Of a DNA stretch of 64,000 nt, positions 24,384 to 39,380 are shown in pieces; positions within the stretch are counted from its first letter, which is position 1, and each line of letters begins with the position of its first letter. The stretch lies in NCBI GenBank assembly GCA_902799985.1, contig CADCCR010000011.1, forward strand, positions 153-64,152, given 5' to 3'. The position numbers were made by a program, and so were the translations under genes. Below the pieces are notes generated by a model that made no database searches, had not been told where the DNA came from, and saw only the letters and a program-made list of their open reading frames with translations. The stretch is from an uncultured Bacteroidales bacterium (GTDB lineage Bacteria > Bacteroidota > Bacteroidia > Bacteroidales > Bacteroidaceae).

Positions 24384-25799
24384 ATGAAAAAATATATTGA
24401 CAGACGAGACTTCCTCAAAGTCTCTGGCACCACGGCTGCTACGGCGGCTTTGGCATCATGTGGCATACAAGGCGGCAACGCTGACGGCGAGGTGGACTAC
24501 ATGGGACACCACGAAGGCCCCATTCCATCGGACAAAATGACCTATCGCACCAACCCCAAGCAGGGCGACAAGGTCAGTCTGCTGGGCTATGGATGGATGC
24601 GCCTGCCGACCATGAAGAACGGCAGTGCCCGCACACAGGAGAACGTCAGCGGCGACGCCCTGGACCAGGAACAGATAAACCGCCTCTGCAAGTTTGCCCT
24701 CGACCACGGCGTCAACTACTTCGACACATCGCCGGCCTATTGCCGCGGACAAAGCGAGCAGAGCCTGGGCATCGCCCTGGAGGCCAGCGGATACAAGCGC
24801 AGCGACTATTTCATCGCCACGAAGCTCTCCAACTTCTCGCCCTCGCAATATGACTTCGAGGAGGGCAAGGCCATGTTCGAGCGCAGCCTGGAGTTCCTGA
24901 AGACCGACTACATCGACTATCTGCTCCTGCACAGCATTGGCGGCGGTGGCATGGGGCCTGTCCATCAGCGCTACCTCGACAACGGACTGCTCGACTGGCT
25001 CGTGGAACAGCGTGAAGCAGGCCGCATCCGCAACCTCGGCTTCTCGTTCCATGGCGACGTCGCCGTCTTCGACTGGGCCCTCGCACACCACGACCAGTAT
25101 CACTGGGACTTCGTGCAGATTCAGGCCAACTACGTCGACTGGAACAACGAGCAGGACAAGGGACGCTCCGGCAAGTACCTCTACGAAGAACTGGTGAGGC
25201 GGAACATCCCCGTCGTTATCATGGAGCCCCTGCTCGGCGGACGTCTGTCGAAGGTGCCCGACCACGTCGTGGCGCACTTCAAGCAGCGCAAGCCGGAGGA
25301 CAGCGTGGCTTCGTGGGCCTTCCGCTACATCGGCTCCAAACCCGCCGTGCTCACCGTGCTCAGCGGCATGACGTATATGGAACACCTGGAGGACAACCTG
25401 CGCACATACTCTCCCCTGGAACCTCTCACCGTGGAGGAGCAGGACTGGCTGGAGAACGAGACGGCAACGCTCATCAAGAGCTATCCCACCATCGATTGCA
25501 ACGACTGCAATTACTGCATGCCGTGCCCCTACGGACTCAACATCCCTGCCATCTTCGTACATTATAATAAATGTGTGAACCAAGGTAACGTGCCCGAGAG
25601 CCAGCAGGCCGAGAACTACCAGAAGGCACGCCGTGCTTTCCTCATCGGCTACGACCGTAGTGTGCCCCGTCTCCGCCAGGCCAACCACTGCATCCAGTGC
25701 CGCGAGTGCGTCAGTCACTGCCCGCAGCAAATCGACATCCCGCGCGAACTGCAACGTATTGACAGCTTCGTCGAGAAGCTCAAGCAAGGCACGCTCTGA
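24384..25799 (+). CDS. Tat-signal aldo/keto reductase with a C-terminal Fe-S (ferredoxin-like) cysteine module
   Basis: The N-terminus MKKYIDRRDFLKVSGTTAATAALASCG has a twin-arginine motif plus a lipobox-like ASC. An AKR core follows (GVNYFDTSPAYCRGQSE). The C-terminus has CNDCNYCMPCP and CIQCRECVSHCP. Confidence 0.85.
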   Translation: MKKYIDRRDFLKVSGTTAATAALASCGIQGGNADGEVDYMGHHEGPIPSDKMTYRTNPKQGDKVSLLGYGWMRLPTMKNGSARTQENVSGDALDQEQINRLCKFALDHGVNYFDTSPAYCRGQSEQSLGIALEASGYKRSDYFIATKLSNFSPSQYDFEEGKAMFERSLEFLKTDYIDYLLLHSIGGGGMGPVHQRYLDNGLLDWLVEQREAGRIRNLGFSFHGDVAVFDWALAHHDQYHWDFVQIQANYVDWNNEQDKGRSGKYLYEELVRRNIPVVIMEPLLGGRLSKVPDHVVAHFKQRKPEDSVASWAFRYIGSKPAVLTVLSGMTYMEHLEDNLRTYSPLEPLTVEEQDWLENETATLIKSYPTIDCNDCNYCMPCPYGLNIPAIFVHYNKCVNQGNVPESQQAENYQKARRAFLIGYDRSVPRLRQANHCIQCRECVSHCPQQIDIPRELQRIDSFVEKLKQGTL

Positions 25800-25805
25800 G
25801 GAAAC

Positions 25806-25853
25806 CTCCCTGCGCTTCCTAAGCGCCCTGCGCTTCCGCAATAAGCGCACGCC
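25806..25853. repeat. Short 22-bp hairpin array (about 2 units) after the AKR stop
   Basis: cctgcgcttcctaagcgccctgcgcttccgcaataagcgcacgcc. This is the same family as 12695-12835 in the opposite orientation. Confidence 0.8.
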
Positions 25854-25871
25854 GTGTAGGAAACAAAAAAA

Positions 25872-25900
25872 GCCCCTTCCCGAATCTCCCGGGAAGGGGC
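25872..25900. terminator. Bidirectional intrinsic-terminator-like hairpin between convergent genes
   Basis: GCCCCTTCCCG-aatctcc-CGGGAAGGGGC is flanked by an A-run (25861-25871) and by cTTTcTgTTTg. Confidence 0.7.
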
Positions 25901-25922
25901 TTTCTGTTTGTCCTGTTGTCGT

Positions 25923-28163
25923 TTACTTCTTCTCGCTCATGGTGAAGTCGAGTGTGCCGCCGGCAATGAGCTGCTGGTGCGTGAGCTTCCAGTCGGTTAT
26001 CTTCTGTCCGTTCAGTTTCACACCCTTCACGTAGATGGCCTTGTCCGATTTGCGCGGTGCGTTGATGACAAGGTCCTTGCCGCCCGGCATGTGCATGACT
26101 GCACGACGGAACAGCGGCGTGCCGATGACGAACTCTGCCGAGCCTGCGTTGAAGGGGTAGAAGCCCAACGAGGAGAATATGTACCAGGCCGACATCTGTC
26201 CGCAGTCGTCGTTGCCGGCATAGCCGCAGGGAGTGGCGTTGTAGAACGTACTGCGCACCTGTTCCACCAGCTCCTGTGTGCGCCAGGGCTGACCCGCGAA
26301 GTTATATAGGTATACGGTGTGGTGGCTTGGCTCGTTGCCATGGGCATATTGTCCGATGAAACCGCTCGCATTGCCGTTCACTTCGCCGCTCGTTTCGGTC
26401 AGCGTGAAGTTCTTGTTGAGCTTCTCGATGAACGGCTTCACACCGCCGAAAAGGTCGATGAGTCCTTGCGGATTCTGCGGCACGAACCACATGTATTGCC
26501 AGGCGTTGCCCTCCACGAAGCAGGGATTCTCGTAGCTCAGGGGGTCGAATGGCTCTATCCAGTTGCCTTTATCGTCCTTCGGCTGGAAGAATCCTGTGGC
26601 CGGATTGAACAAGTTGCGGTAGTACTCGCTGCGCTTGCTGAAGCGTTCAAAATCGCCCATTTTACCGAGCTTTTTTGCCACAGCTGCCACGCACCAGTCG
26701 TCGAAGGCTTGCTCCATCGTGATGCTGACGCTGACGTTCTGCTTGTTCTGCGGCATGTAGCCGTACTCTTCCCACACCTCGAAGGGACTGTTGGGGTGCG
26801 TGCGTGTGCTGCTCTCCACCATTGCGCGGTAGGCACGTTCCACGTCGAGGCCCGGCAGCTCGGACAGGATGGCGTCGGCCACAACGGGGATGGCATGATT
26901 GCCTATCATGCAGTAGTTGTCCTGTCCCCAGAGGTCCCAGATGGGCAGGTAGCCGTATGTCTCGTGATGCAGCACCATATCACGGACGAACTGCACGGCG
27001 ATGTTGGGGTAGAGGAGCGTGTAGAGGGGATGGGCGGCACGGAAGGTGTCCCACAGACTGAACGTGCTATGATAGGCCTGACCCTTTGGCATCTGCTTGA
27101 TTTCGAAGTTGGTGTCCATGTAGCGGCCGTCCACGTCGCTGACTGTGTTGGGCTGCATGAGAACGTGGTAGAGGCCGGTGTAGAAGATGGTCTTCTGTTC
27201 GTCGGTGCCTTCGATGTCGATGGTGGAGAGTTCCTTCTCCCAGGCATCGTGCGCGGCCTTGGTATAGTAGTTGAAATCCCACGACTGTGCCTCTGCCTGC
27301 ATGTTGCGGCGGGCACCGTCGTTGTCAACGGCCGAAATGGCAACCTTCACCATCACTTCCTTGCCAGCCTTCTCGTCGAAGTGGAGCGCTGCACGCAGCG
27401 TCTTGCCATTGACGACGTCGCTGCCGCCGGCATTGCGCCCGCCGTCCATCAGGATGCGGCTTGCTATGGGGCGTGAGAACTCGGCGCGGAAATACACCTT
27501 GCGCAGCTTTGCCCAGCCCGTCACGACGCGGAAGCCTTCGATGGTCTTGTCGTCGAGCACACGTATCTGGCTTTGGATAATCTGATAGGCACGTCGCCCG
27601 GAGTAATAGGCATCGCCTCGCCAGGTCATTCTGTCGAGGTCGAGGATAATATTTTGCTCCATTCCATCGGGGAAAACGTACTTGTGGATGCCGGCGTGAA
27701 CTGTGGCCGACAGCTCTACGTGGATGTTTTCGCCGCCCAGCAGGTCGACTGAATAGAAGCCAGGTGCAGCACTTTCCTTGTCGTGCTTGAAAGGCAATGC
27801 GAAGATGCCCTTGCGCAGCAGGTCGGGTGTGACACGCTTGACGGTAGGCATCAGCGAGATGTCGATGAGGTCGGTACAGCCAGTGCCGCTGAGGTGTGTG
27901 TGCGTGAAGCCGAAGATGGAGTCGCGGTTGTAGTCGTAGCCGCAGCAGGGGTCCCACGTGACGTATTGCTCTGTCTCGGGAGCCAACTGTACCATGCCCT
28001 GAGGCATCGTGGGGCCTGGGAAGGTGCTGCCGCTCAAGGCGCCAGTGTCATCGGTCTGAGTCCCGATGAAGGGGTTGACGTACTTCGTGTAGTCCACTGC
28101 CACACCGCTCAATGCAAAGCAGGCTGTGAGGCATATCGCTGCTATTCGTTTTGGGTAGAACAT
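25923..28163 (-). CDS. GH92 family alpha-mannosidase
   Basis: Signal peptide, YVNPFIGTQTDD...GSTFPGPTMPQGMVQLAPET, and ...HGNEPSHH..., typical of GH92. Length 746 aa. Confidence 0.9.
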   Translation of the reverse strand: MFYPKRIAAICLTACFALSGVAVDYTKYVNPFIGTQTDDTGALSGSTFPGPTMPQGMVQLAPETEQYVTWDPCCGYDYNRDSIFGFTHTHLSGTGCTDLIDISLMPTVKRVTPDLLRKGIFALPFKHDKESAAPGFYSVDLLGGENIHVELSATVHAGIHKYVFPDGMEQNIILDLDRMTWRGDAYYSGRRAYQIIQSQIRVLDDKTIEGFRVVTGWAKLRKVYFRAEFSRPIASRILMDGGRNAGGSDVVNGKTLRAALHFDEKAGKEVMVKVAISAVDNDGARRNMQAEAQSWDFNYYTKAAHDAWEKELSTIDIEGTDEQKTIFYTGLYHVLMQPNTVSDVDGRYMDTNFEIKQMPKGQAYHSTFSLWDTFRAAHPLYTLLYPNIAVQFVRDMVLHHETYGYLPIWDLWGQDNYCMIGNHAIPVVADAILSELPGLDVERAYRAMVESSTRTHPNSPFEVWEEYGYMPQNKQNVSVSITMEQAFDDWCVAAVAKKLGKMGDFERFSKRSEYYRNLFNPATGFFQPKDDKGNWIEPFDPLSYENPCFVEGNAWQYMWFVPQNPQGLIDLFGGVKPFIEKLNKNFTLTETSGEVNGNASGFIGQYAHGNEPSHHTVYLYNFAGQPWRTQELVEQVRSTFYNATPCGYAGNDDCGQMSAWYIFSSLGFYPFNAGSAEFVIGTPLFRRAVMHMPGGKDLVINAPRKSDKAIYVKGVKLNGQKITDWKLTHQQLIAGGTLDFTMSEKK

Positions 28164-28234
28164 GTTAAATAAGTTTTAATGATTGTGCAAAGTTCGGGAA
28201 ATCTTTTGTTTTTTGCAAAGAAATATATAATTTT

Positions 28235-28699
28235 GTGGCGAAAATCGAACGAACAATATATATAAATATGTTATACTATCCTCTCCTTGCCCTAATGTTC
28301 CCGTTCATGCAGGCCGACACAGCACGCGTCGACACCTCCCGGACCGACAACACCATCCGCGTCGACACCCTAAAAGAATTGGAGGTGCGTGGCGACTCAG
28401 TCCTGCGTGTCAACGAGGCGATTCGCCAAACGATAGGCAGGGAGTTGAAAAGCCGTCAGGGAACTCCCACCTTGAGCGATGTCATCGGCGGCAAGGCCAC
28501 TGACGTGATTATGCACCCCTTCGCCATAAAGGACCGCAAGCGGGAACGCAAACATGCGCGCGACCGGAAGATTCTGGAAGAGTACGAAAAGTTGGGACGC
28601 ATAAAGACCTTCGAGGAACTCCTCGACGAGGCTATCCGCCAGCAGGCCATCGATGACGGCATAGAACCGCCTACGCGCTCCGGCAAGAAAAACAAATAA
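28235..28699 (+). CDS. Hypothetical protein (start may be the Met at 28268)
   Basis: Open frame with a hydrophobic N-terminus MLYYPLLALMFPFMQA and a basic C-terminal half. I recognise no family. Confidence 0.45.
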   Translation: MAKIERTIYINMLYYPLLALMFPFMQADTARVDTSRTDNTIRVDTLKELEVRGDSVLRVNEAIRQTIGRELKSRQGTPTLSDVIGGKATDVIMHPFAIKDRKRERKHARDRKILEEYEKLGRIKTFEELLDEAIRQQAIDDGIEPPTRSGKKNK

Positions 28700-28708
28700 A
28701 CCAGTGTC

Positions 28709-29554
28709 TTGAACTTGAATAAGGTAACTCCTGCTATTCTTACGTTGCTAATCTTCCTTTTGATGCAAGGGATTGGCACAGCGGCCCTCTTTGGCATGGG
28801 CATCCTTATCTCGCCTGAATTCGCTACAGCCCTCAGCGAATATGTCAGCGGTGCGACGGACGAACTGCCATTGCTCAATGTGTTGCCCGTTTCGCTCTTC
28901 GCGTTGACGCTGATGGCTACCAACATATTGACTGTTCTTGCCTGCCGTCGCATACTGCATAACATCTGTTTCAAGTCGGCTTTCGACTATGCTTCTGTCA
29001 ACTGGCAGCCTGGCATATTGGCTTTGTCCGGTGGCATCTTGGGCGCCATTGGCATGTCGGTCCTGACCGATTCTGTCGAGATGCCCGACTCCATGCAACA
29101 GGCTTCGCTGGCTTTGTCGCGCAATGTGTGGGGCCTGCTTGCGATTGTTATCGTAGGCCCCGTCACAGAGGAACTTCTCTTTCGGGAGGCCATAGCAGGC
29201 GAGATGTTGCGCAGGGGAGCTGGTCCTTGGGTGGCGATCCTGACCTCTGCATTGGCATTCAGCATCGTGCACTTCAACTTTGCACAAGGCATCTATGCCC
29301 TTCCCCTCGGCATTCTTTTGGGAATTATCTATTTCAAGACGGGAAACATCGTGCTCTCTTCCCTGCTACACATTATTAATAATAGTATTGTCGTACTTCA
29401 ACTGTACATCGTTGGCGAAGAATTTGTCAATACTTCTTATGCGGAACTGTTTGGAGGGATGTTGATACCTTATATAATTATGACGTTTAGCATCGTGTTT
29501 TGTTGCTTTCTTATGTGTGCATTTTGGAGGCATTATGTACCATTCGCAACATAG
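28709..29554 (+). CDS. CPBP family intramembrane glutamic endopeptidase (CAAX protease-like)
   Basis: Multiple transmembrane helices with GPVTEELLFREAI, FSIVHFNF and LLHIINNS motifs. The annotated start is TTG, and an in-frame stop at 28697 excludes a longer ORF. Confidence 0.75.
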   Translation: MNLNKVTPAILTLLIFLLMQGIGTAALFGMGILISPEFATALSEYVSGATDELPLLNVLPVSLFALTLMATNILTVLACRRILHNICFKSAFDYASVNWQPGILALSGGILGAIGMSVLTDSVEMPDSMQQASLALSRNVWGLLAIVIVGPVTEELLFREAIAGEMLRRGAGPWVAILTSALAFSIVHFNFAQGIYALPLGILLGIIYFKTGNIVLSSLLHIINNSIVVLQLYIVGEEFVNTSYAELFGGMLIPYIIMTFSIVFCCFLMCAFWRHYVPFAT

Positions 29555-29680
29555 CGAACAATGGAAGTAAATTGATAAGATAGGTGGAAAATGTAGGTTA
29601 AAATTCTAAAATATGCAATAAGTTTTGTTAAAATAGCTTAAACGCCCTTCTTTCCTCATCTTTATTTCGCCGTATTGTCT

Positions 29681-29688
29681 TACCTTTG
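29681..29688 (+). promoter_or_regulatory. -7 box (TACCTTTG) upstream of the giant lipoprotein gene
   Basis: Matches TAnnTTTG and implies a 5' leader of about 105 nt. The leader contains the hairpin CACCCaaaaGGGTG. Confidence 0.45.
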
Positions 29689-29799
29689 CCAAACAATAGC
29701 ACCCAAAAGGGTGTACTATGCAGATATGAGAAAAAAGTTTAAGTAGAAAACGTATTAACTAAACTCAAACATAATTTATATAAACAAACTTATTAAAAA

Positions 29800-32700
29800 A
29801 TGAAAAAGAAACTCATTCAATCACTCACGCTGCTGTTAGTGGCAGTCAGTGTGGGAGCGTTCGTATCTTGTAAGGATACCAACGAGGATTTGTACAACGA
29901 GTATCGTACAGAGGCTGCTGGCCAGTCCGCGACTCTGCAACAGAAGCTTTCTCAGCTCGAGGGAACAATTGCAACCCTCCAGGCACAGCTGGCTGCTGTC
30001 AACTCATGCACATGTGACCCGACCAAGGTTACCACTCTTGAAGGCAAAGTGGCTGCTATCGAAGCCGCACTTGCAGGCGGTGGTGGCACAGGCACAGCTC
30101 CGGTTATCGTCGACATCATCGATGACTATATTGATGATTTGCTTGGCGGTGGCTCTGGCAGTGGTGGCTTAACCCTGCAGGACATTGTGAATATCGTTAA
30201 TAACCTTCAGGGTGACCAGGGTGATTTGTCAAAGATTTACAATACCCTTACAACTTATGGTAACGACATTACTACCATTCTGACGACCCTGAATGATCAT
30301 GGCGACAACATCCAGTTGCTCCTCACCAACCAGCAGGCTGCTCAGACATTGCTCAACAGCACTATTGCTGACCTGGCTGCCCTTCAGCAGAAGGTTAATG
30401 ACATCAAGCAGTGCAACTGTGACTTCACCACTCTGTGGAATGCCATCCATGAGCTCGAAACAGGTCTGGCTGCTGCTGAGGCAAAGGCACAGAATGCATT
30501 GGATTTGGCAACAGCTGCCGACACAAAGGCTACGAATGCTCAAAACACTGCTAATGCTGCCAATAACACAGCTAATGCTGCCAATAACACAGCTAACGAG
30601 GCCAAGCTGACTGCCGATGAAGCTAAGGCTGCTGCTGCTGCTGCAACAACAATCGCTAATGCTGCTACCGATTTGGCTCAAACAGCTGTTCAGACTGCTG
30701 CAAATGCTGAGAGCCTTGCCACGGCTGCCGGTCTGACCGCACAGGAAGCTAAGACTTTCGCTGAAACAGCTAAGACAAATGCTGAGAATGCCCTCAATAT
30801 TGCCAACAACGCAATCAGCGCTGCAGCAACAGCTCAGACTGCTGCAACAGCAGCTCTGAACCAGGCAAATGCTAACAAGGAGGCTATCGATCAGCTCAAG
30901 AATGACATCACAACCATTCAGAACACCCTCACACAGTATGGTGATCAGATTAACCTGAATACAACAAACATTCAGAAGAACGCTGATGCCATTGCTGATG
31001 CTGTCAATAAGATTCAGACTAATGCTGAGAAGATTCAGCAGAACAAGGAAGCTATCGACGCTCTGAAGACTCAGATCACAACCGTGAGCGAGACTGCAGC
31101 CAATGCTCTCCAGAAGGCAATCGACGCAGACGCAAAGGCTACTGCCAACGCTCTTGCTATCGAAAACCTGAAGCCCGCTGTCGAGGCTAACAAGACTGCT
31201 ATCGATGAGCTGAAGACAAAGACCCAGACTCTCGAGTCTACCGTTACAAATCTTCAGACTGTCGTTAACGACCTCAGCACTCAGGTGAACAACAACACTA
31301 CAGCTATCACCAACAACACCACAGCTATCACCAACCTAACAACCACCGTCAACAACCTGACAACTCAGGTTAACACAATCGAAGGTTCTGTTGATGAGCT
31401 GAAGACTACTGTTGCCGAACACACAACCAAGCTGGCAACTATGGAGGCCGAACTTGCTACTGTTAAGACAGAATGTGCTGCCAACCTTCTGACTGCAAAG
31501 CAGTATGCTGAGGCACAGGCTGAGGCTGTCAGAACTGCTCTGATGACTGAGATCAACAACCTCATTGCTCAGCTTGCAAACTACTACACAAAGGATCAGG
31601 TTTACACCAAGCAAGAAGTTGACGACCTGCTTAAGCAATTGAAGGATAACCTGAACATCACGATTAACAACAACACCGTAAGAATTGAGGTGCTTGAAGG
31701 TAAGGTTACTACCCTCGAAGGTAAGGTTGTCGATCTTCAGAGCGCTGTTGACGATCAAGGCGATAGAATCACTGCCCTCGAGACAAAGCTCAATGGCTAT
31801 GAGACATTGGTTGAGACAGTCAACGGACACACAACAAAGATTGAAAAACTCACAACCGACCTTGGTTCACTGCAAAGCATCGTAGATAACCTCTCTACTA
31901 CTGTTGGTCAAAACACTTCCGACATTGCTACAAACGCTGCCGCTATTGAGGCTATCAATGCTGCTATTGCTGCAATCAAGAGCTGCACTTGCGACCCCAA
32001 CGCTATCACAAAACTGAACGAAGACATCGCCGGCATACTGGAGCGTCTCGCTGCTGCAGAGGCAAATATTACTAAGAACGCTGGTGATATTGCCACAAAT
32101 GCTGAAGCTATTGCCGCAAACACCAAGCTCATCAACGATGTAAAGAAGGAACTGACTGACCTCATCAATGAGCAGATTGACCAGCTGAAGTCCACTCTTG
32201 AGGAGCAAATTGGTGCAGTCGACCACAAGGCTGACAGTGCACACGCCAGAATCGACGCATTGCAGTTGGCCTTTGACAACCTCAACTACATCACTCCCGA
32301 GGAGGTAGATGACAAGTTAGGTGACTTGGCTGAACTCCTCTTAGACAAGATTCATGCTGACTCTCTCGTTTCTGCCCAGACAGACGAGGACTTCAAGAAG
32401 CGTATGGATATCATTGGCGACTCCGTTGCTACTGCATTCCAGGACATCATCACCATGCAGACTACCATCGCTGCACTTGATGCTGCTACCGTCAAGAAGG
32501 ATGACTACAACGCCGACAAGGAAGAGATTCTTGGCAAGATTAGCGCTAATGAGACAGCCATCAGTGACCTGCAGGATGTCGTTGAGACCCTCAGCGACCA
32601 GCTGACCTCTCTCGAGGATAGAATAGAAGACCTGGAGGATCGCATGGATGTGGCAGAGGCTAACATCGAGCAGGCACTCGACGACATTCAGGACCTCAAG

Positions 32701-34899
32701 TCCGACGTGGCCGAAATTCAGGAGTTCCTTGCTAAGCAGGTAACAGGTATCATGATTCAAGGCACATACAATCCTGCCTTCGGTACTTTGGATCTGCCCT
32801 TCGACGTTCAGTCCAACATCCTCGTCGCTTACTATGGCAAGCCCGCCAAGGACGTTGAATTCCCCACATCGCGCACAAGTAATTATGTACGCCCAGAGGA
32901 GGCTCTCACCGAGAAGGATATGCAGATGATTAACGGCGTTGAGGTATTCGAGCACCTTGCCAACATTCCTCTCATGTTCGAGAACAACTATGCAGGTAAG
33001 GTTTACATGACCATCAACCCCAACACAGCTGATCTTTCTGGCCTGGAGCTGAGCATTGTCAATACTCAGGATACAGAGTCTCCCATCAAGCTCGAGGGTG
33101 TCAAGAAGAGCACCGAGAAGCTGAAGTTCGGCTACACTCGTGGCGAGAATGGCTTCTACGAGGCTGACGCTGTCGTTGCTCCCATCGATGTCGAGAAGGT
33201 TGAGCACATTTCCGTTGACAAGGCTGCCATCAAGGATGCCTATAAGGAGATTGCCGAGAAGCGCCTTAATGCTGACATCGAACAGGTAGCAACAGATGTC
33301 TACAAGGTAGTGAAGTCCCTGAAGCTCAACAAGAGCGGTTTGAAGTGTTCTTACACAGAGAACGGCAACACACACTCTGTCTACTCTCAGTACAACCTGG
33401 CAGCTACAGCTATCGATCCTCTCGACTTCGCTTCGTATAAGGATTGGAACTACCAGACTGTTCCTGGTTACGAGCGCGTCAACAACCTGCTCAACAGAAT
33501 TTCAAGAAAGGCAAAGGACAAGATTCATATCTTCTTCAAGGAGCTCAACGAATCTGCTTTGGTTGAGAAGGTTTGCGATCTTCAGATCAATGACATTGAG
33601 GTTCCCGACCTCTCTAACGACCTGCTGGCTAAATTCGTCCTGCACATGGATACCACCTTCGTAATGGATGGCCTCAAGTATCATCTGGATATGAAACTTG
33701 ACAAAGAAGTAACTGTCAAGTTCGACACAACGATTACAATTCCTATCAATTTGGAGGGAGTTACGGTTAACGTTCCTATTGACTATGATCAGAATGTAAA
33801 TATTGATTTGTCAACAGTCGTTGTAGAATCTCCCACAGTAGTTGTTAAGGGTTATGCTACCGGTCATGCAAATACAGGAAATTACAAGGCAGAAGTTGAT
33901 CCAATAACAGGTGACACAATAAATAAGGTTATTATTGACCCGGAAACCGGTCTGCCAGTATATGAGACAGTACTTGTTGTTCCTGTGAAGGACGATGCAG
34001 GTAATACTGTAGGTAACGCTGAAATTGATTTGAACGATGTCAATATCACTGCAGATGTTAATGCTTCTGGTACTGCAGGTACGATTAAACTCAATGGTTC
34101 TCCTGTTGCTACCATTAGCATCCATAAGACGTTCACTGGCACAGGAAATGTTCATCAGAATATGGATTACCATCTCGTAATTGAGAAGACCGTGGATATA
34201 TCGTACCAGCTTGACAAGTGGATCTACTTCGGTGATGGTGGCACAGACAAGAAGGAGTTCAAGCTTGTCTTCAGCTACGACATGCGCGACGCAGCTACGG
34301 ATCTTTGGGGACAAGCTCAGCACGCTATTGGCGACGTGAACAAGATGCTGAATGATCTCCGCGACATCGTCAGCGAGGTGAACAACGCTTTGGATAAGAT
34401 CAACAGCTACGAGGCAAGGATTGGCAATACGATTGACGAATATATTGACAGGGTTCGCAGCTACATCGACAAGATCAACAGCAAGATTGTCGGCTTCGTC
34501 AATTCTACCAACAGCCGCTTCCAGCCCTTCATGGTTGCTGCAGACAGCAAGGGTATCAAGCGTCTGAGCGGTAGTAAGAACTATCCCACTCAGTTGAGGT
34601 CGGACATCTCTCTCTATCCCACTTCTCAGACAATGGAGCTCATTGTTCCTATTGCCAGAAAGCATGTGGCTGTGACCAACGTCTTCAAGGGTAGTGCAAG
34701 TGCTCAGGGTGGCAACGCCGACTGTCTGGCTCGTCTGAAGGCTGCCAACACCGGTAAGCTCAACACTGTGCTGGATGGTAATGTCCGTCAGATTGCTCTG
34801 AATGGTTTGAAGTCTGGCTATGTATACGAGATTGCATACTCAGGCCTCGACTTCCATGGCAACATCGCTACACGCAAGTACTATGTAACTGTGAAGTAA
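29800..34899 (+). CDS. Giant (1,699 aa) coiled-coil lipoprotein, predicted to be surface-exposed
   Basis: Lipoprotein signal ...SVGAFVSC (Cys24) followed by KDTNED. Residues about 25-980 are an A/T/N/Q-rich heptad-like sequence with three CxCD motifs (C70/C72, C205/C207, C729/C731). Residues about 980-1699 are beta-rich. Confidence 0.9.
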   Translation: MKKKLIQSLTLLLVAVSVGAFVSCKDTNEDLYNEYRTEAAGQSATLQQKLSQLEGTIATLQAQLAAVNSCTCDPTKVTTLEGKVAAIEAALAGGGGTGTAPVIVDIIDDYIDDLLGGGSGSGGLTLQDIVNIVNNLQGDQGDLSKIYNTLTTYGNDITTILTTLNDHGDNIQLLLTNQQAAQTLLNSTIADLAALQQKVNDIKQCNCDFTTLWNAIHELETGLAAAEAKAQNALDLATAADTKATNAQNTANAANNTANAANNTANEAKLTADEAKAAAAAATTIANAATDLAQTAVQTAANAESLATAAGLTAQEAKTFAETAKTNAENALNIANNAISAAATAQTAATAALNQANANKEAIDQLKNDITTIQNTLTQYGDQINLNTTNIQKNADAIADAVNKIQTNAEKIQQNKEAIDALKTQITTVSETAANALQKAIDADAKATANALAIENLKPAVEANKTAIDELKTKTQTLESTVTNLQTVVNDLSTQVNNNTTAITNNTTAITNLTTTVNNLTTQVNTIEGSVDELKTTVAEHTTKLATMEAELATVKTECAANLLTAKQYAEAQAEAVRTALMTEINNLIAQLANYYTKDQVYTKQEVDDLLKQLKDNLNITINNNTVRIEVLEGKVTTLEGKVVDLQSAVDDQGDRITALETKLNGYETLVETVNGHTTKIEKLTTDLGSLQSIVDNLSTTVGQNTSDIATNAAAIEAINAAIAAIKSCTCDPNAITKLNEDIAGILERLAAAEANITKNAGDIATNAEAIAANTKLINDVKKELTDLINEQIDQLKSTLEEQIGAVDHKADSAHARIDALQLAFDNLNYITPEEVDDKLGDLAELLLDKIHADSLVSAQTDEDFKKRMDIIGDSVATAFQDIITMQTTIAALDAATVKKDDYNADKEEILGKISANETAISDLQDVVETLSDQLTSLEDRIEDLEDRMDVAEANIEQALDDIQDLKSDVAEIQEFLAKQVTGIMIQGTYNPAFGTLDLPFDVQSNILVAYYGKPAKDVEFPTSRTSNYVRPEEALTEKDMQMINGVEVFEHLANIPLMFENNYAGKVYMTINPNTADLSGLELSIVNTQDTESPIKLEGVKKSTEKLKFGYTRGENGFYEADAVVAPIDVEKVEHISVDKAAIKDAYKEIAEKRLNADIEQVATDVYKVVKSLKLNKSGLKCSYTENGNTHSVYSQYNLAATAIDPLDFASYKDWNYQTVPGYERVNNLLNRISRKAKDKIHIFFKELNESALVEKVCDLQINDIEVPDLSNDLLAKFVLHMDTTFVMDGLKYHLDMKLDKEVTVKFDTTITIPINLEGVTVNVPIDYDQNVNIDLSTVVVESPTVVVKGYATGHANTGNYKAEVDPITGDTINKVIIDPETGLPVYETVLVVPVKDDAGNTVGNAEIDLNDVNITADVNASGTAGTIKLNGSPVATISIHKTFTGTGNVHQNMDYHLVIEKTVDISYQLDKWIYFGDGGTDKKEFKLVFSYDMRDAATDLWGQAQHAIGDVNKMLNDLRDIVSEVNNALDKINSYEARIGNTIDEYIDRVRSYIDKINSKIVGFVNSTNSRFQPFMVAADSKGIKRLSGSKNYPTQLRSDISLYPTSQTMELIVPIARKHVAVTNVFKGSASAQGGNADCLARLKAANTGKLNTVLDGNVRQIALNGLKSGYVYEIAYSGLDFHGNIATRKYYVTVK

Positions 34900-34934
34900 A
34901 AACTAATTCGTCGAACCAGAAAAAGAGAACGATT

Positions 34935-36077
34935 ATGAAAATCAAGAATATTATCATGTCTGTTGCCCTGCTTGCCGGATGCATCACTGCATCCGCGCAG
35001 CAGACAACAGCTGCACCCAGCGAAGAGTTCAACCCCCACTGGTATGTTCAGGCTCAGGCAGGTGGACAGCACACTCTGGGCGAAGTATGCTTCGGCGACC
35101 TCCTTTCTGTCAATGCACAGATAGCAGGCGGCTATAACTTCACCTCTGTTTGGGGTGTTCGCCTTGCTATTGGTGCCTGGCAGAGCAAGGGTGGCACTCA
35201 TCTCGATTACTTAGGACTTGGCGACAAGACCTGGAAGTACAATTACATTGCTCCTACAGTTGACGTGGTTTGCGACCTCAGCAACTTGATTCTCGGCTAC
35301 AACCCTAAGCGCGTTTGCAACTTCGGTTTGTTGGCTGGTATCGGTGCCAACATCGGTTTCAACAACGGTGAGGCATTGGATGTAAGGAATCAGGTTATTG
35401 CAGCCAGCAACAATGTGCTCGACGAGGCCCATCTGATGTCCCTGTACTGGGATGGCACTAAGGCTCGTTTCTTGGGTAAGTTCGGCGCTTTCGTCGACTT
35501 CAACCTGAGCCGTCGCGTATCTCTCGGTCTGGAAGTGAACTGCAATCCCACCACTGACAGCTACAACTCGAAGAAGGCAGGCAATGGCGACTGGTACTTC
35601 AACGCCCTGGCCGGTGTCAAGGTAAGACTTGGCAAGGTTTCCCGCGAGGGTAAGCCTGCACCCGCTCCTGCTGTTGTAGAGAAGATTGTAGAGAAGATTG
35701 TGGAGAAGCCCGTCGAGAAGATTGTCTACAAGGAAACTCCCGCTCCGAAGCCCGAGCCTCTGCGTCGCGACATCTTCTTCAAGATCCGTGGCTCGCAGGT
35801 CAACAGGACCGAGATGCTTAAGGTAGAGGATGTAGTAGCTTACCTCAACAAGTATCCCGAAGCAAAGGTAACTGTTACCGGTTATGCAGACAAGGGTACC
35901 GGCAATCCGAAGTTGAATGTCGGCTATGCCCGCAAGCGTGCCGAGATGGTTGCCGACCTGCTGGTTAACACCTATGGTATCTCTCGCAGCCGCATCACAG
36001 TGGACAGCAAGGGTGACACCGTTCAGCCCTACGAGCAGAACGACCTGAACCGTGTCAGCATCTGTGTTGCCCAGTAA
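34935..36077 (+). CDS. OmpA family outer-membrane protein (N-terminal beta-barrel, VEKIVEK linker, OmpA-like C-terminal domain)
   Basis: Signal peptide, then alternating-hydrophobic barrel strands, then the linker PAPAPAVVEKIVEKIVEKPVEKIVYKETPAPKPEP. The C-terminus reads ...VTVTGYADKGTGNPKLNVGYARKRAEMVADLL... Confidence 0.9.
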   Translation: MKIKNIIMSVALLAGCITASAQQTTAAPSEEFNPHWYVQAQAGGQHTLGEVCFGDLLSVNAQIAGGYNFTSVWGVRLAIGAWQSKGGTHLDYLGLGDKTWKYNYIAPTVDVVCDLSNLILGYNPKRVCNFGLLAGIGANIGFNNGEALDVRNQVIAASNNVLDEAHLMSLYWDGTKARFLGKFGAFVDFNLSRRVSLGLEVNCNPTTDSYNSKKAGNGDWYFNALAGVKVRLGKVSREGKPAPAPAVVEKIVEKIVEKPVEKIVYKETPAPKPEPLRRDIFFKIRGSQVNRTEMLKVEDVVAYLNKYPEAKVTVTGYADKGTGNPKLNVGYARKRAEMVADLLVNTYGISRSRITVDSKGDTVQPYEQNDLNRVSICVAQ

Positions 36078-36106
36078 TCATTGAGTAACAGGCTAATCTA
36101 AGAGAC

Positions 36107-36147
36107 ATTCCCCCGTCATTCTGCTTCTGGCGGAGTGGCGGGGGAAT
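36107..36147 (+). terminator. Hairpin downstream of the OmpA-family gene
   Basis: ATTCCCCCG...CGGGGGAAT has a stem of about 9 bp and is followed by TTTGATT, which is only weakly T-rich. Confidence 0.4.
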
Positions 36148-36181
36148 TTGATTACTAAATCAACAGAAGCTTTTGTCTATT

Positions 36182-37381
36182 ATGAAGAGATTCTTATCAT
36201 TCGTTTTTGTTGCGTCCTTGCTGAGTGCAGGCAGTGTCCTTGCCCAGACTGGCACGGGCTTCATCGGCAACGGCTACTATCGTATCCGCAATTATGCCAC
36301 CGACCGTTACATTTATGTGACGGACAACAAGGATTATTACGATATGGCACGCGACAAGGAGGATTTTCAGGCTATACAACTTTGGAAGGATGTCACTCGC
36401 TTTGCATCCGACCCCGGCAGTGTCATCTACTTTGAGGAAGTGACACCCGACCATTTCGACCTAAGGGCTCAGGGCACCGGGGTTCATTCCTTTACTGGTT
36501 ATTATGTTGGTGTGACCAAGAGTTCCGGCACTTATATTGTTTCGGCCAGTGTGACGAAAGCTGGAATGCAGGTGACGAAGTACCTGACCGATGACGAGCA
36601 GAGTTCGTCGGACCAAGGCACGATGGGAACCCGAGGCAAGCTCAACTACCGCAAGTGGATTGTGGACAAGATAGAGACGGACCATGCAACCAACTATTTC
36701 GGCATCAAGCCATCGATAGAGGTTGGTGGCAAGTTCTATCATCCGTTCTATGCCGCTTTCCCCTTCAAGGTGGCAAGCGCAGGGATGCATGTCTACTACA
36801 TCGACGAGGTGGAGAGCAAGTATGCCGTCTTGAAGGAGATAGAGGGCGAAGTGCCGGCCAGCACGCCTGTCCTCATCGAGTGCAGTTCAGCCAACCCTTC
36901 GGAGAACCGTGTTGAGCTTCTTGCCACTTCATCCGCTAAGGTGACTGGCAACTTGCTTGGCGGTAATTATTTCTGCAATGGCAAACGCCCTCAGGAGTCG
37001 GTCGATGCTTATAAAGTCTTCGATGCAGACAAGATGCGTGTCTTCTCGGTGGTGGACGGTCAGCTTGTGCTTACGAACAATGCGCAGGACCGTCTCAACG
37101 AGATAAAGACTGTCGACTACTCCACATTATCTATGATAAAGCTCAAGTGTCTTCCTTCCAACACCAGTTATATGAAGGCGGACTCTGATACACCTGCCGA
37201 GGTGCCCGTGTTCGTCGACGGTCAGGTTCCCGACGCCATTGGCAGCATCTTGGCAGAGCAGAAGCCTACGGCCGCAGGTGTCTATTCCCTCAGCGGCACA
37301 CAGCTTAGGGCATCGAGCGATTTGCAAGGTCTGCCTGCAGGCCTGTATATCGTGAACGGTAAGAAGGTAGTCATAAAATAA
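36182..37381 (+). CDS. Secreted hypothetical protein with a T9SS-type C-terminal tail
   Basis: The ATG at 36182 gives MKRFLSFVFVASLLSAGSVLAQ. The C-terminus ...GVYSLSGTQLRASSDLQGLPAGLYIVNGKKVVIK resembles those ending at 354 and 12435. Confidence 0.8.
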   Translation: MKRFLSFVFVASLLSAGSVLAQTGTGFIGNGYYRIRNYATDRYIYVTDNKDYYDMARDKEDFQAIQLWKDVTRFASDPGSVIYFEEVTPDHFDLRAQGTGVHSFTGYYVGVTKSSGTYIVSASVTKAGMQVTKYLTDDEQSSSDQGTMGTRGKLNYRKWIVDKIETDHATNYFGIKPSIEVGGKFYHPFYAAFPFKVASAGMHVYYIDEVESKYAVLKEIEGEVPASTPVLIECSSANPSENRVELLATSSAKVTGNLLGGNYFCNGKRPQESVDAYKVFDADKMRVFSVVDGQLVLTNNAQDRLNEIKTVDYSTLSMIKLKCLPSNTSYMKADSDTPAEVPVFVDGQVPDAIGSILAEQKPTAAGVYSLSGTQLRASSDLQGLPAGLYIVNGKKVVIK

Positions 37382-37459
37382 AGTCCCATCCCGACCTCGT
37401 CCGAGGGATGAGGTGAGGGGGTGACATATACATTATATATAATATATAGAGATTCTACG

Positions 37460-38650
37460 ATGAAGGCTTTTGGAGCTTTTGCAATAGCCCTGTCTCTGAC
37501 GGCAGCGATGTCGGCCCAGGAGGGCAGTCAGTCCTTTACTTCTGTGTTGGCTCGGAAGAATATCCTGAACCACATGGACGTTGGCGTGAACGTGGGCACG
37601 ATGGGTGTCGGCGTTGATGTGGCAGTGCCTGTAGGCGACTATGTGCGCGTGCGTGCCGGCTACCACTATATGCCGCGCTTCACCATCAACTCCGACTTCC
37701 CTGTCGAGACGCGTAGCGGCAGCTTGAGCCAGTCCGACTTGAAGCGCTACATGGGCAAGATGAGCGAAGTGACCACCATCTTGGAGCAAAACGGCATCAA
37801 CCTCGACAACTATTCGAGGGAAAAGTCGCTGATAGATAAGTTCAGCGGCGTGGAGCTGAAGGACAAAGTGTCGATGGGCATGCGTCCCAGCATGCATCAG
37901 TTCAAGCTTCTGGTAGACGTTCTTCCCTTCAAGAACAATAAGCATTGGAGTCTGACGACAGGTATCTTTGTCGGTCCGGCTCAGGTGGGCGATGCCTGCA
38001 ACAAGGATCTGGAAATGCCATTGCTGCAGGCAATCAATGCCTACAACGAGCTGTACGTCATGTCCTGCACCTGGGAAATGTTAGGTGGCGGCGACGTTTA
38101 CTACAGGGGCAGGTCGCTCCACGACACCTTCTCCAAGATGGGTGTTGCCGGCTTCCCCTTGGGAACGTTCGCCAGGGACGTCACGCGTGTCGTTACCGAC
38201 GAGAATGGCGCAGAACATACGCTTGTGGCGGCGAAGGGCACTAAGGCTATCATGGTGCCTTCAGCCGACGGGACTGCGCGTGCAGAGATGGAGGTGAGCA
38301 AGGTGCGTCCCTACATCGGGTTCGGCTACAACACACATCTGTCGCGCAACAAGCGTTGGCAGTTGAATGTCGATGCCGGTGTGATGTTCCTCTGTGGAGC
38401 TCCGAAGGTGTACGTTGACAACGTCTATAGCATCGACGAGTCGCTCATCGATACCGGCAACGAGGTGTACGATATAGTCCGCCCCAACGAGGAAGGGACG
38501 GACTATGTGGTGGACACACCTTTGTCGCACATCGACCTGGTTCGCGACTTGCAGGGAATCACCGGCAAGGTGGGCGACTTGGTGGACGTTGCCTCCAAGT
38601 TCAAGGTCTATCCGAATGCGACGGTGACGTTCTCGTACAGGTTGTATTAG
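37460..38650 (+). CDS. Hypothetical outer-membrane beta-barrel-like protein
   Basis: The ATG at 37460 gives the signal peptide MKAFGAFAIALSLTAAMSAQ. The protein ends ...ATVTFSYRLY, the aromatic terminus typical of outer-membrane barrels. Confidence 0.65.
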   Translation: MKAFGAFAIALSLTAAMSAQEGSQSFTSVLARKNILNHMDVGVNVGTMGVGVDVAVPVGDYVRVRAGYHYMPRFTINSDFPVETRSGSLSQSDLKRYMGKMSEVTTILEQNGINLDNYSREKSLIDKFSGVELKDKVSMGMRPSMHQFKLLVDVLPFKNNKHWSLTTGIFVGPAQVGDACNKDLEMPLLQAINAYNELYVMSCTWEMLGGGDVYYRGRSLHDTFSKMGVAGFPLGTFARDVTRVVTDENGAEHTLVAAKGTKAIMVPSADGTARAEMEVSKVRPYIGFGYNTHLSRNKRWQLNVDAGVMFLCGAPKVYVDNVYSIDESLIDTGNEVYDIVRPNEEGTDYVVDTPLSHIDLVRDLQGITGKVGDLVDVASKFKVYPNATVTFSYRLY

Positions 38651-38659
38651 GAGCCCCTA

Positions 38660-38727
38660 AAGCCCCTCTCCAAACCTCCCCCAAAGGGGAGGCTTTTTTT
38701 GTTAGGGGAGGTTGGGATGAGGGGAGG
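38660..38727. repeat. GC-rich palindromic element (one full and one partial copy) between convergent genes
   Basis: aagcccctctccaaacctcccccaaaggggaggc, then TTTTTTT, then ggggaggttgggatgaggggagg. Confidence 0.85.
38675..38700 (+). terminator. Intrinsic terminator formed by the palindromic element
   Basis: CCTCCCC-caaa-GGGGAGG followed by cTTTTTTT, 25 nt after the stop at 38650. Confidence 0.6.
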
Positions 38728-38730
38728 ACC

Positions 38731-38835
38731 TCAGTAGCCCATGCACGAGGTGGTGCCGAGGGCGGTGAGGAAGGCTGTGAGGGCGGCAACGGCCATCTTC
38801 ACGAGCAGTTCGATAAATCTGTTCTTCTTTTTCAT
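38731..38835 (-). CDS. 34-codon ORF: signal peptide plus lipobox plus 3 residues (resembles the small ORFs I recall being labelled 'smalltalk protein' in Bacteroidales)
   Basis: Hand translation gives MKKKNRFIELLVKMAVAALTAFLTALGTTSCMGY. Its ATG overlaps the upstream TGA as ATGA (38832-38835). It is below the ORF-track cutoff. Confidence 0.55.
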   Translation of the reverse strand: MKKKNRFIELLVKMAVAALTAFLTALGTTSCMGY

Positions 38836-39320
38836 ACGTTCTTTTTGTATAGTTCAAAACCTTTGTTAATGATCTCTTCGGTCAGGAGCATCCCGCACTC
38901 CTGACGTGCCATGGCACGGACGAGTGCCGGCCAGTCATGTTCCGTGAGCCGCTGCGTGTCGCTCAGGCCAGTCCACAGGCAGACGTTGCGGATGTAGCGT
39001 TCGGTATCGTTCTCTGTGGGCGGTGCCCAGCGTCCGATGATGTCGCGGATGCAGCACAGCCCGTGCTTGTTGCGATAGGAGCGTAGGATGCAGAATGCGG
39101 CTCGGAGGCCCCATTCCATGCTCTCAAAGCGGACGAAGGCCCCTCTCCCGACCTCCCCCAAAGGGGAGGCCACATTGCTGATGAGGGGCTGCTCGCCTGG
39201 AGTTGACTTCGTCGGGCGTTTGCTACTCCCCTTGCAGAGGGAGTCAGCGGGGGTCTCTTCCCCCTTCCACTTCTGCCCTTTGACTCGGCGGATATTCAGC
39301 GGGTTGTTGTTAGAGTTCAT
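38832..39320 (-). CDS. Hypothetical protein downstream of the HU-HIG gene (family seen in phage and Bacteroidales contexts; function unknown)
   Basis: NPLNIRRVKGQKWKGE...FVRFESMEWGLRAAFCILRSYRNKHG...IRDIIGRWAPPTENDTERYIRNV. It carries an in-frame palindromic element (ASPLGEVGRGAF). Confidence 0.7.
   Translation of the reverse strand: MNSNNNPLNIRRVKGQKWKGEETPADSLCKGSSKRPTKSTPGEQPLISNVASPLGEVGRGAFVRFESMEWGLRAAFCILRSYRNKHGLCCIRDIIGRWAPPTENDTERYIRNVCLWTGLSDTQRLTEHDWPALVRAMARQECGMLLTEEIINKGFELYKKNV
39136..39170. repeat. GC-rich palindromic element in frame within CDS 38832-39320
   Basis: aaggcccctctcccgacctcccccaaaggggaggc. Confidence 0.85.
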
Positions 39321-39346
39321 AGTTCATAATTCATAGTTCATAGTTA
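39314..39346. repeat. Octamer-type repeat (TTCATAGT/TTCATAAT) spanning the start codon of CDS 38832-39320
   Basis: agttcatagttcataattcatagttcatagtta. Confidence 0.75.
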
Positions 39347-39380
39347 AGAGTTTTGCGTTTTTGTTTCCGCGGCCGTTCCC

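Follow-up and report, generated by a model that had tools for sequence, protein, structure and literature searches.

A probable lipid-anchored coiled-coil surface fibre encoded at the head of a conserved outer-membrane gene module in Prevotellaceae

The fibre gene and its reading frame

A 64,000-nucleotide stretch of DNA from an uncultured Bacteroidales bacterium of the family Bacteroidaceae, a rumen organism of the Prevotella type (GenBank assembly GCA_902799985.1, contig CADCCR010000011.1, positions 153 to 64,152 of the forward strand; hereafter the window, numbered from its first letter) encodes at 29800-34899 (+) a 1,699-residue predicted lipoprotein, here called the fibre protein. It consists of a signal peptide, a coiled-coil stalk and a β-rich head, and its gene stands first in a row of four that encode predicted outer-membrane and secreted products. 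On balance, this protein is best read as a coiled-coil fibril that is fixed to the cell surface by a lipid anchor and has a distal head of variable sequence. The locus had been singled out in a preliminary description, made from the sequence alone, as encoding an unusually long lipoprotein that resembled the stalk of a trimeric adhesin and carried no domain that could be named.

The fibre gene is indeed the longest open reading frame (ORF) in the window, the runner-up being SecDF with 1,014 residues, and the ORF is genuine. The identical full protein sequence is already present in public collections. The 15 members read of a 33-member cluster at 90% identity, each from separate assembly records, are 1,684-1,706 residues long and differ in length only by one NTANAAN heptad more or fewer at a 21-bp repeat and by two small in-frame insertions or deletions (indels) in the head. 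A collinear orthologue of 1,646 residues occupies the same chromosomal position in Prevotellaceae UBA4336 (locus L001), and the overall ratio of non-synonymous to synonymous divergence (dN/dS) against it is 0.2. The 21-bp repeats and a dip in base composition within the ORF would be compatible with an assembly artefact or a pseudogene, in which unrelated pieces have been joined through repeats, a possibility that the preliminary description had raised. Full-length cluster members whose indels are confined to whole heptads or small in-frame changes, the collinear orthologue and the low dN/dS all speak against such an origin, the probability of which is negligible. Two antisense ORFs also lie within the gene, at 32341-33375 (-; 344 residues) and 33811-34665 (-; 284 residues). 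The counterpart of the latter in L001 is only 60% identical over 155 residues, so this ORF fits a by-product of sense-strand codon bias rather than a gene.

Lipoprotein signal and export motif

The N-terminus, MKKKLIQSLTLLLVAVSVGAFVSC, contains Cys24 followed by K-D-T-N-E-D and has the layout of a type II (lipoprotein) signal peptide (29800-29871, +), with a positive n-region (MKKK), a hydrophobic core (LIQSLTLLLVAVSVGA) and the lipobox F-V-S-C, in which Cys24 would be the lipidated residue. An equivalent lipobox cysteine is found in all 100 full-length homologues examined. The lipoprotein signal recognised in the preliminary description is thereby borne out, and the fibre protein can be classed by sequence as a lipoprotein and a predicted substrate of signal peptidase II.

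The residues that follow, K-D-T-N-E-D at positions +2 to +7 (29872-29889, +), form an acidic motif similar to an export signal. Among the same 100 homologues, K is conserved in 94%, D in 100%, T or Y in 100% and D at +7 in 97%, which gives a family start consensus of C-K-D-T-x-x-D. The surface export signals that have been tested are C-S-(D/E)2 in Bacteroides thetaiotaomicron, SDDDD in Bacteroides fragilis and C-X-K-(D/E)2-X in Capnocytophaga canimorsus (PMC6222051, PMC5080379). In the CS(D/E)2 signal two acidic residues are needed, with single-Asp mutants at ~50% (PMC6222051), and the C. canimorsus optimum has K at +3 (PMC5080379). The proposed resemblance to a Bacteroidota export signal holds insofar as the motif is acidic and near-invariant in the family, but it fits C-S-(D/E)2 and C-X-K-(D/E)2 only partially.

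Coiled-coil stalk

Residues ~31-980 form a predicted coiled-coil stalk with 18 register breaks (29890-32739, +), as delimited by autocorrelation and register assignment. Hydrophobic autocorrelation over residues 25-980 reaches 0.37 at lag 7, 0.25 at lag 14, 0.20 at lag 21 and 0.22 at lag 28, and is negative at lags incompatible with a 3-4 spacing of core residues. Because the peaks fall at multiples of seven, this region is a true heptad repeat and not mere compositional bias, which confirms the heptad rod of ~955 residues that had been proposed. At 0.148 nm per residue, the stalk would make a rod of ~140 nm.

Core composition bears on the oligomeric state. Position a is occupied by Ile (45), Leu (27), Ala (27) and Val (22), and position d by Leu (44), Ala (24), Ile (18), Asn (18) and Val (8). 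Asn is thus found 18 times at d versus once at a, polar residues are more frequent at d (22%) than at a (10%), and β-branched residues make up 23% of d positions; over 23 homologues, Asn is counted 127 times at d versus 44 at a. Trimeric autotransporter stalks display the same a/d polarity asymmetry, which is reversed in dimeric bZIPs (PMC13580157), and the likeness to a trimeric-adhesin stalk seen in the preliminary description therefore extends to the core. A trimer is favoured because of the excess of Asn at d and the share of β-branched residues there; the stalk is more likely a trimer than a dimer, with the Ile-a/Leu-d core also fitting a dimer. Since the stalk cysteines occur nearly only in CxC pairs of one conserved module, without mirror partners, the chains would assemble as a parallel in-register homo-oligomer. 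An antiparallel hairpin was rejected on the same ground, namely that the CxC positions have no mirror-partner cysteines.

Near the base of the stalk, residues 92-123 (GGGGTGTAPVIVDIIDDYIDDLLGGGSGSGG; 30073-30168, +) interrupt the heptads with an acidic amphipathic peptide held between Gly-rich linkers, in the order GGGGTGTA-PVIVDIIDDYIDDLL-GGGSGSGG, and lie between the first two CxC modules. This interruption is kept in the L001 orthologue and partly in homologue P0257, and is absent from most of the family. It is a probable hinge near the stalk base and could also act as a docking site.

The stalk also contains the 21-bp tandem duplications reported in the preliminary description, each unit of which encodes one heptad: NTANAAN at 30544-30596 (+; 2.5 copies, 96% match) and NNTTAIT at 31290-31335 (+; 2.2 copies, 96% match). 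A degenerate third 21-bp repeat is found at 31924-31979. The copy number of NTANAAN differs by one unit in either direction at residue 249 among cluster members, and the repeat is therefore a device for length variation that works in whole heptads.

CxC modules

Three CxC motifs punctuate the stalk at the residues originally assigned to them. The first, SCTCDP (C70/C72; 30004-30021, +), is situated at a heptad discontinuity; the second, QCNCDF (C205/C207; 30409-30426, +), is followed by LAAAEA at residue 223; and the third, SCTCDP (C729/C731; 31981-31998, +), is followed by LAAAEA at residue 750 and appears to be a mid-stalk copy of the membrane-proximal module. The preliminary description had placed LAAAEA shortly after the first and third motifs. 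Exact copies do follow the second and third, but the first instead precedes AAIEAALAG. Local alignments of the ~70-residue segments around the motifs show them to be mutually similar (z = 4.6, 6.5 and 10 versus shuffled controls, the highest value being that of module 3 versus module 1), and on this basis the three modules are homologous to one another.

At least one CxC is present in 91 of the 100 full-length homologues. They are concentrated 40-60 and 117-150 residues beyond the lipid-bearing cysteine, with Asp as the next residue in 128 of 178 cases, and a third, mid-stalk CxC tends to occur in long-stalk relatives, as it does in the fibre protein. The CxC sites coincide with helix breaks, and the following D-P re-starts the helix. 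Such sites would clamp neighbouring chains, either as disulfides or through a bound metal. Disulfides are chemically questionable because the habitat is strongly reducing and strictly anaerobic, and metal-thiolate clamps are an equally plausible alternative.

Head domain

Residues 981-1699 constitute a head of ~720 residues, which was modelled with AlphaFold2 (AF2) from a 45-sequence alignment (head numbering 1-719). The model agrees with the β-rich character attributed earlier to residues 980-1699, and consists of two conserved β-sandwich parts separated by a hypervariable segment. The conserved proximal head (residues 981-1290; 32740-33669, +) starts with the invariant junction QVTGIMIQGTYNPAFGT; it is predicted to contain a β-sandwich and helices, with head residues 1-250 modelled confidently (predicted local distance difference test, pLDDT, ~70-89) and 81-94% identity to the L001 orthologue. 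The β-rich middle (head ~270-560) is poorly modelled and includes two 26-residue strands; very long strands combined with low confidence would fit an intertwined oligomeric β structure. Within it, the hypervariable segment, residues 1292-1488 (33673-34263, +), has a pLDDT of <50. A helical segment follows at residues ~1496-1573 (34285-34518, +), comprising head helices 516-529 and 536-588, the latter a single helix of 53 residues. The protein is completed by a conserved C-terminal β-sandwich, residues ~1576-1699 (head 590-719; 34525-34896, +), with pLDDT ~88-95 and 88-100% identity to the L001 orthologue.

Foldseek searches of the AF2 head against PDB and BFVD returned only generic fibronectin type III (FN3) and immunoglobulin (Ig)-like β-sandwich matches with query TM-scores of ~0.1, and revealed no specific fold, no characterised family and no kinship with phage fibres. 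From the model, the head appears to be a new arrangement of common β-sandwich folds from which no function can be read. The C-terminal residue of the fibre is Lys, lying within a β strand of the folded domain. A sorting domain of the type IX secretion system (T9SS) at the fibre C-terminus was also considered and rejected: TIGR04183 gave no match even with the threshold set at E = 10, and the structures matched by Foldseek included no C-terminal domain of a T9SS cargo.

A large family with a hypervariable segment

The lack of any characterised domain, noted in the preliminary description, extends across the sequence and structure searches made. Neither the whole protein nor the head matched a Pfam or NCBIfam model at cut-off, with only sub-threshold coiled-coil noise (SMC, Rad50, tropomyosin, SpiroCoCo); PDB sequence searches with the head, residues 1-247 and the product of the third gene of the module (protein 3) gave nothing below E = 1e-3; and Foldseek, as described above, gave no assignment. 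In literature searches, no description was found of the fibre family or of any coiled-coil surface lipoprotein from Prevotella or other Bacteroidota.

Relatives are nonetheless abundant. A search of 90%-identity clusters with the head yielded 183 matches at E ≤ 1e-3 among 8,000 scored candidates; such names as these matches have are 'hypothetical' or uninformative automatic labels, and such organisms as are given are metagenome-assembled genomes of Bacteroidaceae or Bacteroidales. Related genome loci derive from sheep, yak and reindeer. An exhaustive head search retrieved 905 representatives at 50% identity, with lengths from ~330 residues (fragments) to 1,858; E was ≤ 1e-30 for 592 of these. 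By sequence, the fibre protein thus belongs to a large unannotated family of Prevotellaceae and Bacteroidaceae. Its members have in common the conserved start and a conserved head of ~720 residues, and their stalks range from 308 to 992 residues (~46-147 nm). The N-terminal 235 residues, used as a query for the anchor and CxC module joined to other heads, retrieved only 15 proteins, most of them fragmentary. One locus, L010, comes from a sample labelled WOLF17; the label hints that the family may extend beyond the rumen.

Variation among strains is concentrated in the head segment 1292-1488, which is 45-49% identical to the L001 orthologue versus 76-94% in adjacent head segments. Among the cluster strains, which are 97-99.6% identical, variable columns peak at 36% in these residues and peak again at the heptad repeat, and most family matches are split into two stretches around the segment. 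The GC content is 0.39-0.44 at 33,700-34,299 versus ~0.50 elsewhere in the fibre gene. The stretch called very AT-rich in the preliminary description does therefore have lower GC, but this was overstated, the dip being a moderate one to 39-44% GC. Because the regions of low GC, low pLDDT, low identity and match gaps coincide, the AT-rich stretch can be equated with the hypervariable head segment. These residues have probably been exchanged between alleles.

The four-gene outer-membrane module

Three further genes follow the fibre gene on the same strand. The gene at 34935-36077 (+) encodes a predicted outer-membrane protein with an N-terminal β-barrel, a Pro/Lys-rich linker and a C-terminal OmpA domain. 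PF00691 scores 44.5 bits (cut-off 27.2; E = 2e-11), which places the peptidoglycan-binding domain above the gathering score and assigns the product to the OmpA family on sequence grounds; PF13505 (OMP_b-brl) scores 28.2 bits (cut-off 28.7). Protein 3 (36182-37381, +) is a predicted secreted protein of 399 residues. Besides its signal peptide it has an N-terminal domain of ~340 residues, conserved but without family, and a tail ending in GVYSLSGTQLRASSDLQGLPAGLYIVNGKKVVIK. Its last 30 residues resemble a T9SS type A sorting tail. All protein-3 homologue tails, as in loci L003, L004, L005, L008 and L009, have the form (Y/F)xL(S/A/D/N)G...(K/P)G(I/L/T)YI(I/V)N(G/N)KK or similar, and the best of them, in L005, matches TIGR04183 (Por_Secre_tail) with 15 bits (E = 0.019, model positions 34-72), still below the cut-off. 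One such homologue tail reads VYDLSGxxV...KGIYIVNGKKxxIK; the tail in the window occupies 37279-37381. Protein 3 is larger in most relatives: the homologues in the same five loci are 589-959 residues long and add Listeria-Bacteroides repeats.

The last gene (37460-38650, +) encodes protein 4, a predicted outer-membrane β-barrel of 396 residues with large extracellular inserts, ending in TFSYRLY. Its AF2 model has a mean pLDDT of 81.6, and the top Foldseek matches are the eight-stranded CarO barrels of Acinetobacter baumannii (4rl9/4fuv; E = 3e-9, probability 1.0, target TM-score 0.53-0.59). The sequence scores only 17.7 bits against NF038067 (CarO; E = 0.0018; cut-off 300 bits). Protein 4 is thus modelled as a small outer-membrane barrel of CarO-like fold and is, by sequence, no member of the CarO family. 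Its 360 homologues are all unnamed and without Pfam. Protein 3 and protein 4 each represent an unannotated family. An identity with PorP/SprF was rejected, with no match found and the fold being CarO-like.

The order of these genes is conserved over deep evolutionary distances. Homologues of the OmpA-family gene and of protein 3 follow the fibre gene in all eight loci with downstream sequence, despite unrelated flanks, and a protein-4 homologue is found in six of the eight, once on the opposite strand (protein-4 homologues were identified in L001, L003, L004, L005 and L008). A match to the Bacteroidetes -7 box (TACCTTTG; 29681-29688, +) is positioned 112 bp upstream of the fibre ATG, in an intergenic region of 245 bp and ~31% GC. 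In Bacteroides promoters the -7 consensus is TAnnTTTG. The window contains 22 matches to this pattern versus 13.9 expected, and a match is weak alone. An intrinsic-terminator-like hairpin, CCTCCCC-CAAA-GGGGAGG followed by CTTTTTTTGT (38675-38701, +), is located 25 bp after the protein-4 gene and is the only strong plus-strand terminator-like site in 29400-39000. Taken together, the sequence features indicate that the fibre gene heads a conserved four-gene outer-membrane module bracketed by a candidate -7 box and terminator.

In a comparison with the UBA4336 locus, synonymous divergence (dS) is 0.57-0.87 over the stretch that opens with the CPBP protease gene and closes with that of protein 4 (28763-38650). 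It is 0.18-0.35 in the flanks (24384-28163 and 38832-42915), where the genes are 96-97% identical; the module shows two to four times the flank values. Because dS is raised across the module, its history differs from that of its flanks, and allele exchange, in the form of a ~10-kb recombined or exchanged island, is suggested.

Several other features surround the module. A short inverted repeat, CACCC-AAAA-GGGTG (29700-29713), lies downstream of the -7 box and ahead of the fibre ATG, probably in a 5' leader; an Rfam scan of 28000-40500, this repeat included, detected no RNA family. Directly upstream of the fibre gene, 28709-29554 (+) encodes a CPBP/Rce1-like intramembrane protease that diverges as fast as the fibre protein (73% identity and dS 0.82 versus UBA4336). 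As the distant loci L003, L004, L005 and L008-L010 have no such gene upstream of the fibre gene, it is probably not part of the core module. In L010, one of the eight loci above, a 233-residue lipocalin-like gene (10040-10741) is inserted between the fibre and OmpA genes. Downstream, 39428-39889 (-) encodes an HU-HIG domain protein, in which HU is fused to an extra module, and adjoins a gene for a 162-residue protein without family. The chromosomal housekeeping genes around the module include those for IMPDH, GH92, SecDF, MutS and rhomboid.

Proposed mechanism and alternative explanations

Gene anatomy, heptad register, family conservation, synteny and the patterns of variation are direct observations, from which localisation, oligomeric state, cysteine chemistry, physical contact with the products of the neighbouring genes and function are inferred. 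Taken as a surface fibril, the fibre protein could be assembled as follows. Sec would export the precursor, which would then be cut just ahead of Cys24 and acquire its lipid, as the lipobox implies; it would next be delivered to the outer membrane and flipped to the outer leaflet through the acidic C-K-D-T-N-E-D start. Residues ~31-980 would form a parallel in-register homo-oligomer, a trimer in preference to a dimer, making up the ~140 nm rod. CxC modules of adjacent chains would face each other and close into covalent disulfide rings or bind metal, giving two clamps near the membrane and one mid-stalk. The 720-residue head would be distal, with its hypervariable β-rich segment as the likely ligand-contacting or antigenic surface. 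Slippage at the 21-bp repeats would tune the stalk in whole heptads, with large stalk expansions over longer evolutionary time. The OmpA-like protein and the CarO-like barrel, probably co-transcribed with the fibre, may provide a base that holds it against pulling, in which a peptidoglycan tether would be conceivable by analogy with AtaA-TpgA; the T9SS-tailed protein 3 would be their partner at the surface. The fibre would most likely serve in adhesion, or in spacing and shielding, at the surface of rumen and gut Prevotellaceae.

Several observations weigh against parts of this interpretation. In the fibre motif, Cys24 is followed by K (+2), Asp (+3), Thr (+4) and, at +6/+7, Glu-Asp, leaving a single acidic residue at +3/+4 without the adjacent acidic pair of the tested signals. 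A core of Ile at a and Leu at d is reported as the classic signature of dimers among Harbury's GCN4 variants. The reducing rumen makes disulfides doubtful, and DsbA/DsbB are not known from most Bacteroidales. In the head model, pLDDT is <50 for 254 of 719 residues (~35%), and the tail of protein 3 scores only 9.4 bits against TIGR04183 (E = 1.1, residues 368-392; cut-off 23 bits). An adhesin function, moreover, is suggested by the architecture alone.

The same anatomy has been weighed against locations and origins other than the cell surface. A periplasmic tether or scaffold, with its lipid in the inner leaflet of the outer membrane, would make the protein a giant analogue of Braun's lipoprotein (Lpp) or of Thermotoga Omp-alpha, linked to peptidoglycan together with the OmpA-like protein. 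This would account for the peptidoglycan-binding OmpA-family gene that always comes next and for the partial export-signal match, and Lpp is likewise an N-terminally lipidated coiled coil. However, a periplasm ~25 nm wide or a fixed spacer is hard to reconcile with a 140 nm rod, and because family stalks range from 308 to 992 residues they do not match a fixed periplasmic gap. A hypervariable head and strain-level heptad variation are also difficult to explain in the periplasm, the acidic post-Cys motif is near-invariant, and the partners look surface-directed, one with a T9SS-like tail and another a barrel with large external inserts. A periplasmic location is accordingly improbable in our assessment, and surface exposure is suggested by the post-Cys motif, the stalk lengths, the pattern of variation and the partner proteins. 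An origin as a phage tail fibre or tailocin fibre mistaken for a cell protein is very improbable. Phage fibres also combine a coiled-coil shaft with a variable β-rich C-terminal region, and weak BFVD matches to tail proteins were obtained; yet every match in BFVD is at E > 1e-3 with a TM-score of ~0.1, the protein has a lipoprotein signal peptide, and its neighbours are chromosomal housekeeping genes, with the same module in differing housekeeping contexts in other genomes.

A surface location would equally suit a canopy or shield in place of an adhesin. Fibres standing side by side, with C-terminal domains touching as in tetrabrachion or an S-layer, would keep off phages, protozoal receptors and enzymes, and the variability of the head segment would in that case be a trace of escape from phages for which it served as a receptor. 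The anatomy required is the same as that of an adhesive fibril. The C-terminal β-sandwich is strongly conserved (88-100% identity to L001, pLDDT ~90) with the variable segment nearby, and the raised dS across the module suggests allele exchange, as at surface-antigen loci. Lateral contacts, high abundance and a lattice-forming domain have no evidence in their favour, and no S-layer family scored above cut-off; a canopy is on present data an unlikely alternative. The lipid-anchored surface fibril with a variable distal head continues to be the preferred interpretation. Beyond it, a more far-reaching and tentative proposal is that the module specifies an undescribed surface organelle of Bacteroidota: a lipid-anchored, probably trimeric fibre of 45-150 nm, clamped by CxC(D) sites that may be metal-thiolate, on a base of two outer-membrane barrels (one tethered to peptidoglycan), with a T9SS-delivered partner, a cassette-like hypervariable head and length variation by heptad slippage. 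This full scheme is possible but rather doubtful.

Significance

Prevotellaceae dominate the rumen and many mammalian guts, and how they attach to plant particles, other microbes and the host is almost undescribed. The fibre family comprises at least 905 clusters at 50% identity without a Pfam or NCBIfam model or an informative name. Should its members be surface fibres, they would represent a major and abundant class with a strain-variable tip, and a candidate determinant of adhesion specificity, of interactions with phages and protozoa and of strain individuality. It would also follow that the lipoprotein-export route of Bacteroidota could carry a fibrous cargo of 1,700 residues, and that the barrel by which trimeric autotransporters are anchored could be replaced by a lipid in combination with an OmpA-type partner. 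In a strict anaerobe, CxC(D) clamps pose a chemical question, that of disulfide or metal. In the event of the more tentative organelle scheme, the module would be to Bacteroidota what trimeric autotransporter adhesins are to other bacteria, with another principle of anchoring and export.

Comparison with known systems

The closest parallels in architecture are provided by trimeric autotransporters such as YadA, UspA1, SadA and AtaA, which share with the fibre protein a long coiled-coil stalk whose d-layers are polar, mainly through Asn, β-rich heads and stalk lengths that are highly variable within a family. AtaA is in addition co-encoded with TpgA, an OmpA-like peptidoglycan-binding partner, and the fibre gene likewise precedes an OmpA-family gene, though the OmpA domain of the neighbour matches the TpgA model only weakly (E = 1.3e-7, far below cut-off). 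The YadA anchor (PF03895), to which each chain contributes four strands of a 12-stranded barrel, was not matched in Pfam searches of the whole protein (E ≤ 0.01) or of residues 981-1699 (E ≤ 10), and the fibre C-terminus is modelled by AF2 as a soluble β-sandwich, not a membrane anchor. The head, neck and stalk repeats of YadA (Hep_Hag, HIM, YadA_stalk) were likewise absent among the Pfam matches of the whole protein and head. The fibre protein differs further in its N-terminal lipid anchor and hence reversed polarity, with a C-terminal distal head, and would be exported by the Bacteroidota surface-lipoprotein route in place of type Vc secretion.

Streptococcal M proteins are also projecting coiled-coil fibrils with a hypervariable distal and a conserved proximal region and in-frame gain and loss of repeats. 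Unlike the fibre protein, they are Gram-positive, dimeric, ~50-60 nm long and held by a C-terminal LPXTG sortase anchor, and the variable part of the fibre lies inside a large β-rich head rather than at a helical tip. No LPXTG is present in the fibre sequence, and no M-protein family was matched in Pfam or NCBIfam. Lpp resembles the fibre protein, as proposed here, in being an N-terminally lipidated, parallel coiled-coil outer-membrane lipoprotein with a functional tie to OmpA-type proteins. It is, however, a small trimeric periplasmic protein of ~58 residues that sets periplasmic width and is cross-linked to peptidoglycan by its C-terminal Lys, whereas the fibre is ~30 times longer (1,676 residues when mature), with a 720-residue head and an acidic export-type motif.

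For the CxC modules, the nearest analogues are the CxC of matrilin-1 and the CxxC of COMP and thrombospondin, in which a close Cys pair also lies at the edge of a parallel coiled coil. The matrilin-1 motif was reportedly described by Dames and colleagues in 1998 as forming an inter-chain disulfide ring in a trimer. These cysteine knots of the animal matrix are formed in an oxidising secretory pathway, whereas the fibre host is a strict anaerobe and the fibre motif occurs up to three times along the rod, usually followed by Asp. At the membrane, the surface lipoproteins SusD/E/F/G, BtuG and MucG share a lipobox cysteine followed by polar or basic and acidic residues, for which display on the outer leaflet is expected (PMC5080379, PMC6222051). 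They differ in their globular shape and in their place as caps or companions of TonB-dependent transporters, and no fibre of >100 nm is among them. The tetrabrachion of Staphylothermus marinus is similar as a very long, envelope-anchored parallel coiled-coil stalk with distal domains that could form a canopy, but it is archaeal, tetrameric and right-handed, has a transmembrane anchor and bears no sequence relationship to the fibre protein.

The fibre protein would thus appear, from its sequence features, to work like a trimeric autotransporter or an M protein but lacks the defining features of both. What would be new is a fibrous coiled-coil surface protein with a different anchor and export route and a conserved outer-membrane module of its own.

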